Source: Oscillospiraceae bacterium
Lineage (GTDB): Bacteria; Bacillota; Clostridia; Oscillospirales; CAG-272
Direction of reading: 5' to 3'
Assembly: GCA_015064245.1 (NCBI GenBank)
Contig: SVSQ01000002.1
Location: forward strand, 1-59,503
Length of the DNA: 59,503 bases
Part shown: positions 3,107-36,934 of the stretch, piece after piece
How positions within the stretch are numbered: the first letter of the stretch is position 1
How the letters are laid out: every line of letters begins with the position of its first letter
Notes under the pieces: generated by a model
Databases searched by the model: none
Told to the model about the DNA's origin: nothing
Seen by the model: the letters and a program-made list of their open reading frames with translations, nothing else
Position numbers and translations under genes: made by a program

Positions 3107-4459
3107 ATGAATTACGATCTTACGGTAGGAGAGCCGAGAAAAACGCTGTGGCGCTTTACCTTTCCGATGTTTATCAGCGTCGTTTTCCAGCAGTTTTACA
3201 GTATTACCGACAGCGCAATAGCCGGACAGTTCGCGGGAGAGAGCGCTCTTGCCGCGATAGGAGCGTCTTATCCTATCACGATGATCTTTATGGCTATTGC
3301 AACGGGAAGCAATATCGGATGCACTGTTGTTCTTTCACAGCTTTTCGGCGCAAAGAAGTATAAGGACGTAAAAACGGCGGCTTATACCGCGTTGATATTC
3401 GGCGCCGTGCTTTCGGGAATTCTGACGGTCATAGCGCTGATATCCTCTTCGGCATTACTAACCGCTATACAGACGCCTGCTTCCATATTTACGGACGCTG
3501 CCGCGTATATGAATATATACCTTGGCGGATTTTCGTTCCTATACCTATACAATATGGCAAACGGCGTCTTCAACGCCCTCGGAGACTCCAAAACACCGCT
3601 TTATCTCCTTATAATGTCCTCAATTGCGAACGTAGTTCTGGATTACGTTTTCGTAGCGATACTGAACATGGGAGTCAGCGGCGCGGCTTGGGCAACCTTT
3701 ATAGCGCAGGGCGCGGCTTGTATTTTAGCTATTATAATACTTCTATTCAGACTTTCAAAGCTTGACAGCGAAAAGAATATATCATTGTTTTCAGTGCCAA
3801 AGCTGAAGCTGATACTTTTTATAGCAATTCCAAGTATATTGCAGAGCAGCTTCGTTTCAGTAGGAAACTTCTTTATCCAGGGACTTATAAATTCCTGCGG
3901 CGAGGCGGTCATAGCAGGTTTTTCCTCGGCGTTCAAGCTCAACACCTTCGCCCTTACCTCGATAACCACGGTAGCAAGCGCGGTTTCGTCATTCACCGCG
4001 CAGAATATAGGCGCAGGTAAATACGACAGAGTCCGCGCAGGACTTAAATACGGACTTATCCTTGCCATGAGCTTTACGGTGGTATTTGCCTTTTCCTACT
4101 ATTTTGCAGGACGTCATCTCCTTGGAATATTCATGGAGAGCGATTCATCCGACGCTATGGCGACGGGAATAGAATTTCTGAAAATGATAGGACCGTTCTA
4201 TTTCGTTGTGTGCTCAAAATTAGTCTTTGACGGCGTGCTCAGAGGCGCAAAGGCTATGAGATACTTTATGATCACCACGTTTTCGGATCTGATCATCAGA
4301 GTCGTTATCTCATACGTTTTGTTCCCAAGCATGAAGCAGCACGGAATATGGCTCTCCTGGCCGATCGGCTGGGTGATAGGCGCGTTCCTTTCCGTACTCT
4401 TTTATTTCCTCGGTGTCTGGAACAAGAGCGAAAAAGCTGGAGTAAAGCAAGAAGCGTAA
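3107..4459 (+). CDS. MATE family efflux transporter
   Basis: 450 aa, about 12 hydrophobic segments, MatE-type N-terminus FPMFISVVFQQFYSITDSAIAGQ. Confidence 0.85.
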   Translation: MNYDLTVGEPRKTLWRFTFPMFISVVFQQFYSITDSAIAGQFAGESALAAIGASYPITMIFMAIATGSNIGCTVVLSQLFGAKKYKDVKTAAYTALIFGAVLSGILTVIALISSSALLTAIQTPASIFTDAAAYMNIYLGGFSFLYLYNMANGVFNALGDSKTPLYLLIMSSIANVVLDYVFVAILNMGVSGAAWATFIAQGAACILAIIILLFRLSKLDSEKNISLFSVPKLKLILFIAIPSILQSSFVSVGNFFIQGLINSCGEAVIAGFSSAFKLNTFALTSITTVASAVSSFTAQNIGAGKYDRVRAGLKYGLILAMSFTVVFAFSYYFAGRHLLGIFMESDSSDAMATGIEFLKMIGPFYFVVCSKLVFDGVLRGAKAMRYFMITTFSDLIIRVVISYVLFPSMKQHGIWLSWPIGWVIGAFLSVLFYFLGVWNKSEKAGVKQEA

Positions 4460-6065: not shown

Positions 6066-6779
6066 ATGGATTTCTGCGGATTTGAGAGAATAGATTTCAC
6101 TTTTCAAGACAGAGAGGCTATCTTAGTCCTGCCAAACAAGGAGAACGAGAAGAAGGAATGGATGCTGAAAACGGAGTACTTCGGCGCGTTCCCGAAATTC
6201 GAAGCAGATATGCTTGCAAAAGGCTACTATCTTGCGTATCTGAAAAACAACAACCGCTGGGGAACGGACGAGGATCAGAGAGCGAAGCGCGACTTTGCCG
6301 AGTTCCTGCATGAAAAATACGGTCTGAATCGCAAATGTATATGTGTAGGAATGAGCTGCGGCGGATTCCACGCGGTGAACTTCGCATCCCGTTATCCTTC
6401 TTACGTTTCGCTTCTGTACCTTGACGCTCCGCTTCTTTCATTCTACGGCTGGAGCGATGAATTCGGAAACAAGAAAAGCTGGATAGAGGAACAAAAAAAG
6501 GCTTACGGTTTTAAGACCGAAGCCGAGGTTTACGTTTATAACGATCTGCCAATCCATAGATTGCATACGCTTACAGAGAATAATATTCCCGTGGCGCTTG
6601 TTTATGGTGGCAGTGATAAAGTGGTCGATCCCCATACAAACGCAGGAATGCTGAAGGAGTATTACGAGCTTCAGGGAGCTCCCATAAGATCCTGGTGCAA
6701 GCCCGAGTGTGACCACCATCCTCATGGGTTTGAAGATAATACTGATCTTATTGAGTATATAGAGAGTGTGAAGCTGTAA
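6066..6779 (+). CDS. alpha/beta hydrolase (esterase-like)
   Basis: 237 aa with nucleophile elbow GMSCGG and a C-terminal D/H-containing region; family not assignable by eye. Confidence 0.55.
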   Translation: MDFCGFERIDFTFQDREAILVLPNKENEKKEWMLKTEYFGAFPKFEADMLAKGYYLAYLKNNNRWGTDEDQRAKRDFAEFLHEKYGLNRKCICVGMSCGGFHAVNFASRYPSYVSLLYLDAPLLSFYGWSDEFGNKKSWIEEQKKAYGFKTEAEVYVYNDLPIHRLHTLTENNIPVALVYGGSDKVVDPHTNAGMLKEYYELQGAPIRSWCKPECDHHPHGFEDNTDLIEYIESVKL

Positions 6780-25275: not shown

Positions 25276-27129
25276 ATGGACAGTAACATCAGAGTATTCA
25301 AGGAACGAGAAATAACGGCAAAGGGAAATATACTTCCTTTGTCTGAGTTTGAATTTGCAAGAGATATTCCGAATAAGATAATTAACGACGAGATCGGAGC
25401 TTATTTCGTTGCACAAGCTGAAAAAATGCTATCTGAGGAGATACCGCTCCTTCCGCTGTCTCTTTACAGAGATAAAGCTTTGACGGACGTGCGTTCAAGA
25501 TTTGAAAAGCCTCATCATAGAAGAAGAAATATACTCATGCACCTTACTCTTGCAGAAGCATACGAAAGAAAAGGCAGATTTACCGAAAAGCTGGCGGACG
25601 TTTTGTGGGCGATACTTGAGGAGACCTGCTGGGTGATACCTGCGCATTATTATCATTCTCCTAACGATCCGAAAACGCCTATTCCCGAGGTATATACCGA
25701 ATCACAGATGCCGGGACTTGATCTCTACGCCGCAAGCTGTTGCGCGTCGGTGGCTCTTACAAAATATCTTCTCAAAGAACAGCTGGACGCGATATCTCCC
25801 GTTATATGCAAAAGAATAGACCATCTTATATATCTTCGCGGAATCAGACCTTTTGTTTCGGTAACGTTTTCCTGGGCGGGAGAGAACGGTACCTGCAACA
25901 ACTGGGTCACCAATATAACGTCCAGCATACTTACAGCCGCTGCCCTTACGTTAAACGACCTCGAGCTTCGTGAAAGAGTAGCGGAAAAGGCGATGCATCT
26001 TCTCGATAACTTTTCGTCTCACTATCCCGTCGACGGCTGGTGTGACGAAGGCCCCGGATACTGGAGCGGCGCGGGCGGAAACTATTTTGATTGCCTTGAG
26101 ATTCTTGAGGATATGTCAGGCGGAAGGATCAAGGTTTACGATCATTTTCTCATAAAAAGAATGGTAGAATATATCGCGTCAGCAAATATCGACGGGAAAT
26201 ACTATCTGAATTTCGCGGATGCGAAGCCGGTTCTTGAGCAAACGGGAAAGCTGATAATGCGGTTTGCAGAGAAATGCGGTTCGGAAAAGCTGTATTCCTT
26301 CGGACGTATGACTGCGGCTAACAATCCTGTAAACACCGGGCTGTTTTTCGGAATGATCTACAGAGTTTATAAGAACTGTCTGACCGAGGAGATAAAGGAA
26401 GCCCCTGCGGTTCTCGGAGAAAAAAGACTTTGGTACGAGGAGAACAAGATAGCTATTTTCAGAGAGAACGAGGATACGTCCAAAGGGCTGTATCTTGCGT
26501 TTAAGGGCGGACATAACAGAGAGAGTCATAATCACAACGACGTCGGTTGTTTCGTGGTATATGCAAACGGAAAGCCGGTAATAATCGATCCGAGCCACGG
26601 CTCGTACGATAACGGATTCTTCGGACCTACAAGATATAAGCGATGGTATATGAAATCAAGCTATCACAGCATTCCGACAGTTGACGGCATCGAGCAATCG
26701 GCAGGAAAGACGGAGTATTCATCATCCGAAGAAACGATTGACAAGGATTTTAACATAGTCTCAATGGAGCTGAAAAACGCATTTCCGAAAAGCGCGGGTA
26801 TCGTCAGCATGAAACGCACCTGCTCGCTGTGCGACGGAAATATCAAGGTAAAAGACGATATCAGCTTAGACCACACGGGAGATATTCAGTTCAATTACGT
26901 TACGGTCGACGAGCCGAGAGTTTTAGATGAAAAGACGTTGCTTCTGGCTGAAAATGTGGCGTTTGAGTACGAATGTGACGGAGCTGAGCTTGTGATCGAG
27001 AGGGTAGAAAACACGTATCTGCCGTACGAGGATCTGAATTTTCGTTCGGTTTGGGGCAGAGACTGCCTGTGGCGTATCTGTCTGAAGACCAAAGCGAGTG
27101 AAAAAACAGCGGTAATAACTATAAAGTAA
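25276..27129 (+). CDS. heparinase II/III-like protein, paralogue 1 (no signal peptide)
   Basis: 617 aa; LEETCWVIPAHY, WCDEGPGYW, GHNRESHNHNDVGCFVVYANGKPVIIDP (Hepar_II_III signature). Confidence 0.8.
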   Translation: MDSNIRVFKEREITAKGNILPLSEFEFARDIPNKIINDEIGAYFVAQAEKMLSEEIPLLPLSLYRDKALTDVRSRFEKPHHRRRNILMHLTLAEAYERKGRFTEKLADVLWAILEETCWVIPAHYYHSPNDPKTPIPEVYTESQMPGLDLYAASCCASVALTKYLLKEQLDAISPVICKRIDHLIYLRGIRPFVSVTFSWAGENGTCNNWVTNITSSILTAAALTLNDLELRERVAEKAMHLLDNFSSHYPVDGWCDEGPGYWSGAGGNYFDCLEILEDMSGGRIKVYDHFLIKRMVEYIASANIDGKYYLNFADAKPVLEQTGKLIMRFAEKCGSEKLYSFGRMTAANNPVNTGLFFGMIYRVYKNCLTEEIKEAPAVLGEKRLWYEENKIAIFRENEDTSKGLYLAFKGGHNRESHNHNDVGCFVVYANGKPVIIDPSHGSYDNGFFGPTRYKRWYMKSSYHSIPTVDGIEQSAGKTEYSSSEETIDKDFNIVSMELKNAFPKSAGIVSMKRTCSLCDGNIKVKDDISLDHTGDIQFNYVTVDEPRVLDEKTLLLAENVAFEYECDGAELVIERVENTYLPYEDLNFRSVWGRDCLWRICLKTKASEKTAVITIK

Positions 27130-32202: not shown

Positions 32203-34053
32203 TTGAAACGTAGGTTATTTGAAGAACGAAACTTTAATGTGACCGGCAAAGTCGTTCCGTACCAAAGTTTCAAACTGTTTATTGATAAACCCGAAGGTTT
32301 CAACATATGTGAAGAACATCGGGCAAAAATTATCAGTACCGCAGAGGAATGGCTTGAATATGAGTTTCCCGTAATTCTGGCGACAGATTATATGATGTTC
32401 AAAAGAACCGGTGACAGAACCGTGTACGGCGGGAAGTACGGAAAGCGGCGGCAGGCTGTAATGGCACTCGCTCTCGCAGAGTACTTTGAAAGACAGGGCA
32501 GGTTCACTGACAAGCTCATCGACGTTATCTGGATGACTCTGGAGGAAACAACGTGGGTAGCGTCAGCGCACAATCCTTCGAAAGAGGGAGTAAATACTTG
32601 TTTACCGTACGCTCATTCCGGCAAAGTCGATTATATCGACCTGTTCTCAGCTACCATAGCCGCAACGCTTTCATTTATATATTACCTGTGCGGTGATATC
32701 CTTGACGGCGTTACGACCCTGATCAACGAGAGGATCTTATATGAATTAAACAGAAGGATCCTTGAGCCGTTCCTTGATGACTACTGCATCTTAAGTAAAA
32801 TGGGATGGACGGGTGTAAAAGGAAATAAAGTTAATAACTGGAATCCCTGGATAGTTTCAAACGTGCTTACGGTTTGTGCTCTTACAGAAAGAGACCCGAT
32901 AAGAAGGGAAGCCGTTGTAAGACGAGCTATGAAATATCTCGATAACTTTACATCAGTTTACCACGATGACGGCGGATGCGACGAGGGACCGAGCTACTGG
33001 GGCGCGGCAGGCGGAGCGCTGTTCGATTGTTGCAACATACTGTACGATCTGACAGACGGATACGTTGATATCTTTGACGACGAACTATTACGAAAAATGG
33101 GTGAGTATGAGGCTAAGGTTGCAATACATGGTAACCGCTTCCTCAATTTTGCGGATTCACCCTCTAAACTGAACCCAAGCGGTGGACTGATTTACGACTG
33201 GGGCTGCAGATGCAATTCCGAAATGCTGAAAACATTCGGACTGTCACGTCTGAACGGCGGACTCATAAGTTCGAAGCCCGACATAAATCACATCTATCGA
33301 TATTTCCGTTTAGCAAGCGAGCCTAAACACGAAGCGGCAGAGTACATCGCGCCCACGAAATTCTACCTTGACGGTATAGTAGTGGCGGCTGCGCGAGAGA
33401 CCGAAGCTACGGACAAAGGCTTGTATCTCGCATTAAAGGGCGGAGCGAATAACGAAAGCCATAATCACAACGATATTGGTAACGTTATAGTCTTCGCGGA
33501 CGGAAAGCCGATCTTCATCGACGCGGGTTCCGGAACATATACTCGCAGAACCTTCAGTAAGGACAGATACACGATATGGGCTATGCGCTCCGATTATCAC
33601 AATTGCGCAACAGTGAACGGAGTGATACAAGAAAAAGGCGCTGAGTACCATTCGGAAGACGAAGAGTATGACGAGACGAGCGGAAAGCTGAAAATAAGTC
33701 TCAAGCGCGCATATCCCGAATCAGCAGACATAGCAGAATACACACGAAGCGCGGTCCTTGAAAACGCAACGGCAATCATTGAAGATGACATCAAGTTTAA
33801 TAACGAAGGAGATATCGTCTTTAACTATCTGTGCGTGGAGGAACCCTCAGACGTAACGGAAGATTCCTTTGTTCTGAGCGGTCGCAGGATAACCTTTGAC
33901 GCATCTCTTGAGTTCAAGTACGAGACAGTTGATTGCTCCTGGGTTGAAACAGCTAAAATTCCTACAAACTGGGGCGTTGAAAGCATATACCGCATAACAC
34001 TGACAAGCAAAGACAAGATAAAAGAGAAAAAATACGTTCTGACAGTTAAATAA
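32203..34053 (+). CDS. heparinase II/III-like protein, paralogue 2 (no signal peptide)
   Basis: TTG start after AAGGAGGA. 616 aa; LEETTWVASAHN, GCDEGPSYW, NNESHNHNDIGNVIVFADGKPIFIDAGSGTYTRRTF. Confidence 0.8.
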   Translation: MKRRLFEERNFNVTGKVVPYQSFKLFIDKPEGFNICEEHRAKIISTAEEWLEYEFPVILATDYMMFKRTGDRTVYGGKYGKRRQAVMALALAEYFERQGRFTDKLIDVIWMTLEETTWVASAHNPSKEGVNTCLPYAHSGKVDYIDLFSATIAATLSFIYYLCGDILDGVTTLINERILYELNRRILEPFLDDYCILSKMGWTGVKGNKVNNWNPWIVSNVLTVCALTERDPIRREAVVRRAMKYLDNFTSVYHDDGGCDEGPSYWGAAGGALFDCCNILYDLTDGYVDIFDDELLRKMGEYEAKVAIHGNRFLNFADSPSKLNPSGGLIYDWGCRCNSEMLKTFGLSRLNGGLISSKPDINHIYRYFRLASEPKHEAAEYIAPTKFYLDGIVVAAARETEATDKGLYLALKGGANNESHNHNDIGNVIVFADGKPIFIDAGSGTYTRRTFSKDRYTIWAMRSDYHNCATVNGVIQEKGAEYHSEDEEYDETSGKLKISLKRAYPESADIAEYTRSAVLENATAIIEDDIKFNNEGDIVFNYLCVEEPSDVTEDSFVLSGRRITFDASLEFKYETVDCSWVETAKIPTNWGVESIYRITLTSKDKIKEKKYVLTVK

Positions 34054-34358
34054 AAGGACATAAGCAAGCCTGATATTGACCAAGGAAATTAAGTTACATC
34101 ACAAAACCGCGTACTTACCGAGACACGGCGGTCAAGGTAAGATAGGCGTCACCTTCGGATATTTGCTCACGGCTCTCAAAACTTTTGCGAGAAATGCACG
34201 GTACTATAGGAGGAATTACGTATCTGCTTCAAACAAAGTTAGCGAATGACGAAATAGCATAGTCGGCATTCCGAATCAGAGCTTTGATAAATATACGTTA
34301 CGGATTTAGCTCAAGTGATTGCTTTAAACTGACTAATGAGTAACACCGAGATGCAAAA

Positions 34359-34561
34359 CCAATAGCGAAACCTTATATGACAATAGAGAAATGACAAAAC
34401 AAACCTAATAGATAAACCCAATAGAAATAGTAAACCCAATAGAAACCCAATAGAGAAGACCAATAGAAATAGAAAACCAATAGTAAACCAACAGAGACCC
34501 ATAGAAAACAATAGCATACAATAGACATAGCAAACCCTAAATAGAAAGAACAGAGCAATAG
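34359..34561 (+). repeat. array of about 15 C(C)AATAG direct repeats (A-rich, strand-asymmetric)
   Basis: 10 exact CAATAG copies (6 as CCAATAG) plus single-mismatch variants in 203 nt, mostly 10-13 nt apart. Over 34381-34560 the + strand is 56% A and 12% T. Confidence 0.9.
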
Positions 34562-34774
34562 AGTTCCGATTATCACAGAGTAGTTCGGTCTTCGGAACTG
34601 ACCGAGCGGCGATGTGAATATTGCTCAACCAATCTGTATCTGAAATGAAGTTTCAACGGCTAAGCGATGCAAAGCGACACAAAGTGATTCAGTCGACAGT
34701 TTCACCAAGTGAAGCGATGCAGAACGAGGTTTTTGATTCCGAATAGCTTTTACAGATCAGACCTAAAAACAAAG

Positions 34775-34819
34775 ACGGTTCTCCTGCCTGAATCCCGGGA
34801 GAACCGTTTAATTTTTTTA
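34775..34819 (+). terminator. strong intrinsic terminator closing the ORF-free tract (also hairpin+T run on the minus strand)
   Basis: ACGGTTCTCC (34775-34784) / GGAGAACCGT (34798-34807), then TTAATTTTTTT. Confidence 0.8.
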
Positions 34820-34831
34820 TCAAAAGAATAA

Positions 34832-34863
34832 TAAAAAAAGATCCCGCAACAATGTGCAGGATC
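34832..34863 (-). terminator. intrinsic terminator of tRNA-Val
   Basis: Minus strand GATCCTGCA..TGCGGGATC hairpin (34840-34863) followed by T7. Confidence 0.75.
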
Positions 34864-34865
34864 TA

Positions 34866-34942
34866 TGGTGGAGACAACTGGGATCGAACCAGTGACCTCA
34901 TGCATGTCAAGCATGCACTCTAACCAGCTGAGCTATGCCTCC
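34866..34942 (-). tRNA. tRNA-Val (anticodon GAC), CCA encoded
   Basis: Minus strand GGAGGCATAGCTCAGCTGGTTAGAGTGCATGCTTGACATGCATGAGGTCACTGGTTCGATCCCAGTTGTCTCCACCA. 7-bp acceptor stem, anticodon loop TTGACAT, GTTCGATCC T-loop. Confidence 0.95.
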
Positions 34943-34952
34943 GTACTTTAGT

Positions 34953-34981
34953 ATTATATCATATTTTAACCTAAAATGCAA
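34953..34981 (-). promoter_or_regulatory. sigma-A type promoter of tRNA-Val
   Basis: Minus strand TTGCAT (34976-34981), 17-nt spacer, TATAAT (34953-34958), about 10 nt upstream of the tRNA 5' end. Confidence 0.65.
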
Positions 34982-35062
34982 TATGTAATATTGCACAAAA
35001 TTTGCGTGGATAACGCCTTATTTTCTTTAGTATTTTTTATTTAAGAAAGGACTTAGCCAAAA

Positions 35063-36934
35063 ATGAACGAAAGAGTATTCGACAAAAGAAATTACAACAT
35101 TGTAGGTAAGCTCGTTCCATACGAACATTTTAAGATATTCTGCGATAATCCTGATGGTTTTAAGATCGATCCCGGACATTATTCCAATATTATTTCAAGA
35201 GCTGAAGGACTGCTGGATAAAGAATACCCAATGCTTATTGCCTCGGATTATATGATGTATAAGCGTGACGGCAACCGCGCCATTTACGAGCTCAAGTATA
35301 TGGAAAGAAGACAGGATATTCTGGTACTTTCTCTTGCAGAGTTTATTGAGAAAAAGAACAGATTTACCGATACTATCATAAATCTTATGTGGATGCTACT
35401 TGAGGAAACAACTTGGGTTATACCTGCGCACAACCATCCTAAAAAGGACGTAAATACCTGCCTGCCGTACTCTTTTTCAGAAAAAGTTGACTTCTTCGAC
35501 CTCTTTTCCGCTATGACAGGAGCTTGCGTCGCATTAGTATATCACCTTATGAAAGAGCGCTTTGACAGCGTTACTACGATCATTAATGACCGAATAATCT
35601 CCGAACTTGACAGAAGACTGATAGAGCCATTCCTAAACGACGTTGATATGATAGAGCATCTGTGGTGGTCTGGCTCAAGAGGCAATAAGGTAAACAACTG
35701 GTGTCCTTGGATCGTCTCAAATATTCTAACTGTTTGCGCTCTTTGCGTCAAAGAAAAGGGGAAGAGAGAAGCGATCGTAAAACGTTCACTCCCTCTCCTC
35801 GACGCATTTACCGCTACCTACCACAGCGACGGAGGCTGCGATGAAGGTCCCAGCTATTTCAACGTTGCAGGAGGCGCACTGTTTAATGCCTGCGAGGTAC
35901 TGTACGACCTAACAAACGGATATATAAATGTTTACGACGATCCGCTGATCAAAAATATGGGCGAATACGCGGTAAAGGCGATAATCAACGGCGTAAGAGC
36001 TATGAATTTTGCGGATTCGCCGTCTAAAGTAAATATAAATCCCGTGATGATGTATCTATGGGGGAAACGCTGTAATTCGGAAATGATGATAAGCTACGGT
36101 CAGAATCGTCTGAACGGCGAGCTTTATGATACGGTCGCTCAAAACGGAATCAATATGAACCTTGTTTATATTCCGTATAGGGCATTCAAGTTTTTGTGTA
36201 TTCCGAGACTTGAAAAGACCGATTTCGTAGCGCCGAAAAAATTCTATCTGGACGGCATCAAGATCGCAGCTACAAGAGAGTATACCGATACTTCAAAAGG
36301 CCTATACGTGGCGTTTAAGGGCGGTACAAACAACGAAGGTCATAACCACAACGACTTAGGTACTACAATAGTCTTCGCGGACGGAGAGCCGATCTTCCTT
36401 GACGCAGGCTCGGGAACATATACACGCAGGACATTTAACGAAGAAAGATACACCATCTGGTCAATGCTCTCCGACTATCATAACTGCGCCACGATCAACG
36501 GAGTCACTCAGAAGCAGGGAGCAGAGTACGTCACCTGCGACGAGGTATATGACGAAAATATCGGTAAGCTTACCATGTCTCTTTTAAAGGCATACCCCGA
36601 GGAAGCGGGAATCGAGTCGTATTACAAGAGCGCTGTTCTTGAAAACTCTGCGGTGATTATTGAAGACAAGATCAAACTCAAAGCGCCCGGACAAATTATG
36701 TTCAGCCTTATTTGCGATTGCGAGCCCGAAAACGTTACGGATAGTTCCTTCACCGTACACGGAAGGGAAGTCCGCTATGACGCTTCACTTGAATTTAGTT
36801 CCGAGCCCCTTGATAAGACCTGGTCCGAGACGGCAAATATCCCTTCGCATTGGGACGTGGAGACTCTGTACCGCATAACTCTTACTACCAAAGAAGACAT
36901 AAGTGAAAAGAATTATTTGTTAACTGTTAAATAA
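35063..36934 (+). CDS. heparinase II/III-like protein, paralogue 3 (no signal peptide)
   Basis: 623 aa; colinear with paralogue 2 (roughly 60% identical by eye). LEETTWVIPAHN, GCDEGPSYF, NNEGHNHNDLGTTIVFADGEPIFLDAGSGTYTRRTF. Confidence 0.8.
   Translation: MNERVFDKRNYNIVGKLVPYEHFKIFCDNPDGFKIDPGHYSNIISRAEGLLDKEYPMLIASDYMMYKRDGNRAIYELKYMERRQDILVLSLAEFIEKKNRFTDTIINLMWMLLEETTWVIPAHNHPKKDVNTCLPYSFSEKVDFFDLFSAMTGACVALVYHLMKERFDSVTTIINDRIISELDRRLIEPFLNDVDMIEHLWWSGSRGNKVNNWCPWIVSNILTVCALCVKEKGKREAIVKRSLPLLDAFTATYHSDGGCDEGPSYFNVAGGALFNACEVLYDLTNGYINVYDDPLIKNMGEYAVKAIINGVRAMNFADSPSKVNINPVMMYLWGKRCNSEMMISYGQNRLNGELYDTVAQNGINMNLVYIPYRAFKFLCIPRLEKTDFVAPKKFYLDGIKIAATREYTDTSKGLYVAFKGGTNNEGHNHNDLGTTIVFADGEPIFLDAGSGTYTRRTFNEERYTIWSMLSDYHNCATINGVTQKQGAEYVTCDEVYDENIGKLTMSLLKAYPEEAGIESYYKSAVLENSAVIIEDKIKLKAPGQIMFSLICDCEPENVTDSSFTVHGREVRYDASLEFSSEPLDKTWSETANIPSHWDVETLYRITLTTKEDISEKNYLLTVK

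Follow-up and report, generated by a model that had tools for sequence, protein, structure and literature searches.

A C(C)AATAG Repeat Array in the Linker of a Candidate Large Structured RNA From an Oscillospiraceae Bacterium

Introduction

Short sequence motifs repeated in one region are found in several described bacterial systems. The protein-sponge RNAs CsrB and RsmZ carry GGA motifs, mostly in hairpin loops, and CrcZ carries A-rich Hfq-binding motifs; sponge RNAs of this type retain their motif across species. The sites of the TRAP and HutP type are arrays of UAG/GAG triplets that must follow each other regularly at 2-4 nt, a TRAP site having 9-11 (G/U)AG triplets with 2-3 nt between them. 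Rut sites are unstructured, contain more C than G and display spaced YC dimers, and at the level of DNA, plasmid centromeres built of short direct repeats exist.

Another group of systems is formed by the large ornate bacterial RNAs such as ROOL, GOLLD, OLE, and raiA, the functions of which are largely unknown (PMC5737381; PMC12286853). ROOL and GOLLD have often been reported beside a tRNA gene (PMC5737381), and ROOL, GOLLD, and OLE form homo-oligomers (PMC12286853). Only a few RNAs of this size and structure have been described in bacteria (PMC5737381; PMC12286853). A new one adds a case for study even if its distribution is narrow.

Here, we analyze a repeat array found in a 59,503-nt stretch of DNA from an Oscillospiraceae bacterium (contig SVSQ01000002.1), the whole of which is referred to as the window. 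Taken alone, this array is a real but ordinary unstable tandem repeat, and its value lies in marking the candidate for an undescribed large structured RNA within which it is located.

The Repeat Array

The tract had been described in an initial annotation, made from the letters of the sequence, as an array of C(C)AATAG direct repeats:

34359..34561, plus strand: C(C)AATAG array of 203 nt, with 10 exact copies and degenerate copies

A pattern search returns the same ten exact copies of CAATAG, all on the plus strand (starting at 34360, 34381, 34419, 34437, 34448, 34461, 34478, 34509, 34519, and 34556), six of which read CCAATAG in the sequence, and the degenerate hexamers CAACAG, CCATAG, and TAATAG occur in the array as well. 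The remainder of the window (59.3 kb, both strands) contains 21 copies of CAATAG, corresponding to 0.036 expected per 203 nt, and shuffled versions of the 203-nt tract contain a mean of 0.11 copies (mononucleotide shuffling, 20,000 shuffles) or 0.30 copies (dinucleotide shuffling, 5,000 shuffles), with a maximum of 3 as compared with the 10 observed. The array is unique in the window, where no similar tract was found by pattern search or by self-search, and the base content of positions 34381-34560 (56.1% A, 18.9% C, 12.8% G, and 12.2% T) agrees with that noted before. Inside the array, the spacers vary more than the hexamer does. Tandem Repeats Finder resolves the tract into nested imperfect periods of 11, 13, 18, and 41-42 nt with 70-95% matches, and the corresponding array of the related locus L176 into periods of 6, 12, 13, and 59 nt; in both, the units are imperfect and lie head-to-tail, as expected of a VNTR or minisatellite.

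The reading of the tract changes in two respects. The regular spacing of about one helical turn that had been proposed is not borne out, the successive intervals between ATAG cores being 21, 25, 13, 6, 12, 11, 13, 6, 11, 21, 10, 10, 6, 14, and 17 nt, with only 7 of the 15 falling within 10-13 nt and a range of 6-25 nt. Fourier analysis detects no phasing of A-tracts at periods of 9.5-12.5 (maximum power of 0.23 vs. a shuffle mean of 0.65, with 96% of the shuffles equal to or above the observed value). The last of the ten copies (34556-34561) is indeed present as a hexamer but is not a free repeat, being the 5' strand of the conserved helix P1 described below. The minus-strand ORFs over the array (105, 67, and 42 aa) had been dismissed as artefacts, and they are not credible in our analysis either, as they match no Pfam family and the repeat keeps no constant frame in them.

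Genomic Setting and Parts of the Host Element

The array sits in an 812-nt gap between a heparinase II/III-like gene, hepA, and a tRNA-Val gene, beyond which a paralogue of hepA is located:

32203..34053, plus strand: hepA, heparinase II/III-like gene upstream of the element (Pfam PF07940, ORF list)

34839..34942, minus strand: tRNA-Val(GAC), 34942-34866, with its own terminator hairpin, 34864-34839 (ARAGORN, Rfam tRNA, terminator scan)

35063..36934, plus strand: hepB, paralogous heparinase II/III-like gene downstream (Pfam PF07940)

The gene order around hepA is the same in all six related loci presented below. The tRNA-Val gene, which is convergent with the noncoding element, was also detected in L127 and L172, and inspection of the sequence shows it in L176, L128, and L129. 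Heparinase II/III-like genes occur as three paralogues in a stretch of 12 kb (25276-27129, 32203-34053, and 35063-36934), the RNA element being placed between the second and the third. The approximately 20 kb around the array are ordinary chromosome, with an MBOAT gene, the third heparinase-like paralogue, and genes for an esterase, a PLP enzyme, FTHFS, an AraC regulator, Obg, LigA, and ribosomal protein L1, and a Pfam scan of 14 ORFs between 22.6 and 43.1 kb returned no rep, par, integrase, or other replication, partition, or mobile-element genes near the array. At the very beginning of the window, positions 1-295 correspond to a bacterial RNase P RNA of class A (188 bits), its 5' end being truncated by the window edge.

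In every locus that carries it, the element begins immediately behind the stop codon of hepA and extends to the same hairpin in front of tRNA-Val. It is single-copy in the window, where it measures about 760 nt, and 660-750 nt long in the relatives. No terminator was found between the hepA stop codon and the element, the parts of which are the following:

34054..34815, plus strand: whole candidate structured RNA element, comprising 5' domain, A-rich linker, 3' domain, and terminator (from homologous loci)

34061..34325, plus strand: 5' domain, with a predicted closing long-range helix UAAGCAA 34061-34067 / UUGCUUU 34319-34325 (RNAalifold)

34209..34214, plus strand: invariant, Shine-Dalgarno-like GGAGGA in the apical part of the 5' domain (alignment)

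34344..34353, plus strand: conserved single-stranded junction CACCGAGAUG at the end of the 5' domain (alignments)

34354..34552, plus strand: inter-domain linker, A-rich and G-poor (composition, predicted unpaired)

34553..34626, plus strand: core of the 3' domain (RNAalifold)

34553-34560 / 34619-34626, plus strand: predicted helix P1 of the 3' domain, GAGCAAUA / UAUUGCUC (RNAalifold)

within the 3' domain, plus strand: predicted inner helix CACA/UGUG (RNAalifold)

34583-34590 / 34600-34607, plus strand: predicted helix P3 of the 3' domain, GUUCGGUC / GACCGAGC (RNAalifold)

34562-34568 / 34593-34599, plus strand: candidate pseudoknot of the 3' domain, AGUUCCG / CGGAACU (RNAalifold)

34684..34705, plus strand: hairpin GUGA/UCAC with the 14-nt loop UUCAGUCGACAGUU at 34688-34701, including the palindrome GUCGAC at 34692-34697 (alignment)

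34775..34818, plus strand: terminator-like 12-bp hairpin and T-rich run at the 3' end of the element (read from sequence)

Each of the two domains is closed by a predicted long-range helix, that of the 5' domain being nearly invariant, with 6 of its 7 pairs showing no variation. Behind the Shine-Dalgarno-like GGAGGA (34209-34214), the alignment contains 1-nt indels and no conserved start codon or reading frame. The loop UUCAGUCGACAGUU is invariant in all seven loci, the stem of its hairpin showing a G-C to A-U compensatory change, and the loop with its palindromic GUCGAC is a candidate site of kissing-loop self-association. Pairing of the tRNA-Val anticodon with the GUC of this loop was considered and set aside, as it would involve 3 nt only. 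In the variable part of the 3' domain, positions 34721-34736 are the exact 16-nt reverse complement of positions 1482-1497, 1.2 kb from the RNase P gene (E ~0.01). This antisense match, the only one obtained when the window was searched with the flanks of the array, is not conserved in L128 and is probably due to chance.

The terminator-like hairpin (34775-34818) is kept in the relatives with one-sided G-U/G-C changes and is missed by the terminator scanner, as its loop is longer than 8 nt; it could be active on the minus strand, too. The scanner found no plus-strand promoter for the element, so the RNA may be the 3' part of the hepA transcript, produced by run-on or released by processing. 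The promoter-like sequence TTGACC-17-TCACAA at 34076-34104 was rejected as a 5' end, being weak and not conserved. Between the RNA terminator and tRNA-Val, an extra minus-strand ORF of 146-210 aa occurs in L127 (7548-8102), L128 (4075-4707), and L172 (1966-2406); it has no Pfam family on record and is missing from the window, L176, and L129. The site between the RNA terminator and tRNA-Val is indel-prone.

Evidence for RNA Structure

Across lineages, each of the two domains retains no more than 60-75% identity, yet RNAalifold yields consistent multi-helix folds for both. In alignments of six sequences from three lineages, standard pairs fill 91.7% of the pair cells of the 3' domain vs. 36-47% when the partners are slid by 1-3 columns, and 91.8% vs. 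35-39% in the 5' domain, a contrast that is inflated by the fact that the same alignments gave the structure. Subject to the same inflation, the pairs changed on both sides number 15 in the 3' domain (3-8 in the slid controls) and 14 in the 5' domain (1-4 in the slid controls). The covariation score reaches 0.216 in the 3' domain and 0.223 in the 5' domain, the maxima of the slid controls being 0.084 and 0.080, respectively, and none of 500 shuffles attained the observed score in either domain. Within the 3' domain, the P2/P3 helix shows compensatory changes at 6 pairs. Helix P1 and the candidate pseudoknot are invariant, and covariation neither supports nor contradicts either of them. Predicted helices that are kept by compensatory changes in diverged homologues, the general mark of a structured noncoding RNA, occur in both domains.

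A coding function was considered for the element and rejected, its ORFs being short and without a Pfam match; moreover, the indels in the domains are mostly of 1-2 nt throughout, which speaks against a reading frame and excludes coding. The Rfam covariance models gave no match to the element at the gathering score in a search of the whole window, none at E<=10 over positions 33950-35070, which cover the element, and none at E<=1 in L172, L129, and L177. We regard the host element as a candidate for an undescribed large structured RNA. The alignment folding energies are lower on the plus strand than on its reverse complement (-55.5 vs. -42.1 and -39.9 vs. -29.0 kcal/mol), and this better folding, together with the predicted structure and the terminator-like hairpin at 34775-34818, suggests that the element is transcribed, and suggests the strand and the ends of the transcript. 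On the plus strand, the element would most likely be a long 3' extension of the heparinase-like gene, or be processed from it, and would end at the hairpin and U-run facing tRNA-Val.

Relatives and Distribution

The element is homologous and located at the same position in six other loci (L176, L177, L128, L129, L127, and L172), and a further locus, L001, is identical to the window. These loci were reached through the 90% cluster to which the hepA protein belongs, with the exception of L172, which was reached via a metagenome scan. L176 and L177 are near-identical strains, and the hepA protein is 93% identical to that of the window in L128 and L129 and 86.7% identical in L127. The metagenome scan, performed with a conserved 19-nt block of the loop, returned one true homologue (L172) and four chance matches. 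Five more distant loci (L002, L123, and L124-126), with hepA about 60% identical, keep hepA, and some of them tRNA-Val and hepB, and have a short spacer in which the element is missing; L002 retains the arrangement of tRNA-Val and hepB without the element.

Outside bacterial chromosomes, blastn in distant mode detected no match of the element to phages and plasmids, and five scans of IMG/VR viral contigs with conserved blocks gave no homologue by nhmmer. One of these scans returned a G+C-rich chance match (L130), another 40 matches in coding DNA, among it a repeated phage sequence, a third five pattern-only matches, and two returned none. The distribution of the element is very narrow, comprising seven loci of three lineages at one genomic position, and the element is rare or divergent outside this clade, the exact-pattern scan being a weak test of its presence.

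A scan of genome contigs for three CCAATAG with short gaps matched at least 120 loci, and it has no bearing on the relatives, as the species of the window itself is absent among the matches listed. Nearly all of the matches listed are perfect tandem repeats with periods of 7-21 from unrelated phyla. A Candidatus Omnitrophota MAG (L109, JAJDCA010000013.1) carries at 3425-3535 seven irregularly spaced intergenic AAACCAAT(A/G)G units with a long hairpin behind them; this unit is identical to that of the window, the phylum is unrelated, no Rfam match was found, and the resemblance could be a coincidence. The same scan revealed Bacteroidales/Bacteroidota MAGs with long degenerate arrays of heptamers (GCCAACA, GCCAATA, GCCAAAA, and GCCAAGA), located at approximately 6280-6630 on the minus strand of L037, at approximately 850-1290 on the minus strand of L064, and at 1-150 of L103, that of L064 being directly upstream of an ATG-started ORF.

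Variation of the Linker and the Array

The linker is 199 nt long in the window and 96-185 nt in the relatives. Its composition is similar in all lineages (47-58% A, 15-20% C, and 7-12% G), C exceeding G in every linker, and its predicted mean unpaired probability is 0.70-0.82 vs. 0.37-0.48 in the domains. A comparison of 4- and 5-mers revealed none whose enrichment the linkers of the three lineages have in common. The linker of the window contains 9 CAATAG, those of L176 and L177 contain 7, and those of L128, L129, L127, and L172 contain none; among the loci that bear the element, the array is confined to the window (with L001), L176, and L177. The 5' strand of P1, GAGCAAUA(G/A)AG, is common to all lineages and holds the tenth CAATAG, which suggests that the repeat unit grew from the sequence flanking this helix. 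The L172 linker has different tandem repeats of its own, ACAAAAAG in 2.4 copies (1607-1625) and a 14-mer in 1.9 copies (1632-1658), and the linker therefore appears to be expansion-prone in more than one lineage.

The window and L176 are 97.7-100% identical in the neighboring coding sequence, in the two RNA domains, and around the tRNA vs. 93.8% in the array, where they also differ by two indels of 17 and 31 nt, both made up of repeat units. The total of CAATAG is 10 in the window vs. 8 in L176. The density of substitutions is also higher in the array than in the flanks. The substitutions affect hexamer cores (3/60) and spacers (5/117) alike (Fisher p = 1), a comparison of little power given only 8 substitutions; of those in the cores, two abolish in L176 a CAATAG of the window and one makes a new CAATAG. 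L176 and L177 have 2 differences in 1140 nt, both in the array. Each allele is present in two independent assemblies (the window and L001; L176 and its near match L177), which makes an assembly error unlikely. At least two strains have retained the array, albeit with changes.

Origin of the Array and Alternative Explanations

The array is real, it lies between two conserved, covarying domains, the two nearest sister lineages lack it, it varies between strains by whole units, and the few substitutions observed show no sparing of its hexamer cores. The last three of these observations make a slippage-generated minisatellite the best supported of the three roles initially put forward. What the initial annotation had named as evidence against a functional array is found at the level of the sister lineages, the array being missing in these close relatives and no conserved unit being present. 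In our opinion, the array is probably a recent, lineage-specific, and unstable expansion by duplication or slippage in a single-stranded linker with a constrained composition and tolerance for changes in length.

From these data, we infer the following mechanism, origin of the unit, and role of the tract. The repeat unit would be an A-rich sequence of about 11 nt, AAACC-CAATAG, probably derived from the sequence abutting helix P1 (...AAAGAG-CAAUAG-AG), and slippage or unequal recombination in the low-complexity tract may have multiplied it. The linker would be under selection for an A-rich, G-poor, and hence unpaired composition and for a tolerated length of about 100-200 nt, with no selection for a motif. 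The hexamer would have no recognition role of its own, the tract presumably serving as a flexible unpaired tether that joins the two domains. Overlapping duplications of different lengths (6, 11-13, 18, and 41-59 nt) can explain the uniformity of the hexamer without invoking an array of binding sites.

It may also be proposed that the array is a multivalent platform or sponge of single-stranded RNA, in which CAAUAG or the surrounding A-rich unit binds an Hfq-like, S1-like, KH, or other protein or a small RNA, and in which changes in copy number tune the valency of the sponge or of an assembly scaffold. An array of binding sites would be expected to look like this one, with a hexamer core exact in 10 copies and varying spacers, in a region that is predicted to be unpaired and that belongs to an RNA-like element with a terminator; moreover, the A-rich, G-poor composition is maintained in all lineages, and the array persists in two diverged strains. 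However, the sister lineages, with 93% and 87% identity of the neighboring protein and the same RNA domains, have neither CAAUAG nor a common enriched motif in their linkers, hexamers are made and lost by substitution at the rate of the spacers, the degenerate copies CAACAG, CCATAG, and TAATAG are tolerated, and the Pfam scan found no candidate binding protein encoded nearby. We consider this role unlikely, and of the original suggestion of a protein-binding platform inside a long RNA, the long RNA-like element with covariation-supported structure stands, whereas CAAUAG as a conserved binding motif does not, as no k-mer is common to the three lineages. A more elaborate scenario, in which the element would be a new class of two-domain RNA with a pseudoknot core, a GUCGAC loop driving dimerization, a linker acting as a docking platform, and a CAAUAG array providing adaptive, tunable valency in one lineage, appears doubtful to us as well.

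Loading of Rho onto the linker, especially onto the CC dimers found about every 11-13 nt in the array, with transcripts being ended or trimmed between the domains, would agree with an apparent resemblance of the linker to rut sites, with the excess of C (15-20%) over G (7-12%) in every linker, and with the predicted lack of pairing in the tract, but A, rather than C or U, dominates it, the spacing is irregular, and the conserved, covarying 3' domain and the intrinsic terminator downstream argue for a full-length RNA, making such a site highly improbable. We give even less credit to a role of the array as DNA, in the form of iteron- or centromere-like repeats with a DNA-binding protein or of phased A-tract curvature. 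The short-unit direct repeats are often 10-13 bp apart, but 96% of the shuffles match or exceed the observed A-tract power at 9.5-12.5 bp, the neighbors are ordinary chromosomal genes among which the Pfam scan returned no rep, par, or integrase gene, sister lineages that keep the gene order lack the array, no plasmid or phage match was obtained by blastn, and the array is flanked by two covarying RNA domains. The earlier proposal of an iteron, a centromere, or phased curved DNA finds no support, there being no replication, partition, or mobile-element genes among the neighboring ORFs scanned, no phase of about 10.5 nt, and no conservation.

With the array probably being a recent expansion within a length-tolerant linker, the interest of the locus shifts to the element. 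Its predicted domains keep their helices through 25-40% sequence divergence, and the linker is conserved in composition only. The linker represents a natural experiment, in which length and repeat variants of 96-199 nt are tolerated, and which may inform on the freedom with which two domains can be connected. If the array were a true binder of a factor, it would be a rare sponge-like site born of a recent repeat expansion.

Comparison With Known Systems

The array resembles VNTRs and minisatellites in its imperfect head-to-tail units with nested periods of 6, 11-13, 18, and 41-59 nt, and in a copy number and arrangement that differ between near-identical strains with stable flanks. Unlike these, it lies inside a conserved structured RNA-like element with a linker of conserved composition, and is not simply neutral intergenic DNA. 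It is not a CRISPR, as had been recognized before, its units measuring 6-13 nt and its spacers 0-19 nt vs. the 23-50 nt of CRISPR repeats with unique spacers of similar length. An iteron or a plasmid or phage origin was rejected on account of the neighboring housekeeping and carbohydrate-metabolism genes and the lack of a phage or plasmid match by blastn, and a short-repeat centromere of the parC/parH type on account of the Pfam scan, in which none of the 14 ORFs at 22.6-43.1 kb encodes a partition ATPase or a centromere-binding protein.

With the sponge RNAs, the array shares a short motif in many copies in the unpaired part of a noncoding RNA candidate, and with CrcZ its A-rich composition, in which many A-R-N triplets can be read. 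Unlike CsrB and RsmZ, the linker has no GGA, and the tract is predicted to be unpaired and free of hairpins; unlike sponge RNAs in general, CAAUAG is not conserved in the homologues of the sister lineages, and the predicted element has no known partner protein. The many UAG triplets on one strand recall the sites of TRAP and HutP, but the intervals between ATAG cores are 6-25 nt, only three of them being 6 nt.

The element as a whole has no covariance-model match to ROOL, GOLLD, OLE, raiA, or HEARO, and it differs from the first four in its narrow distribution, in its two-domain organization with a long, expandable A-rich linker, and in directly following a coding gene. Like ROOL, GOLLD, OLE, and raiA, this candidate RNA is large (660-760 nt), with multiple predicted helices and a candidate pseudoknot, originates from uncultured anaerobes, and is located beside a tRNA gene, and its invariant palindromic loop could, by analogy with ROOL, GOLLD, and OLE, mediate self-association.
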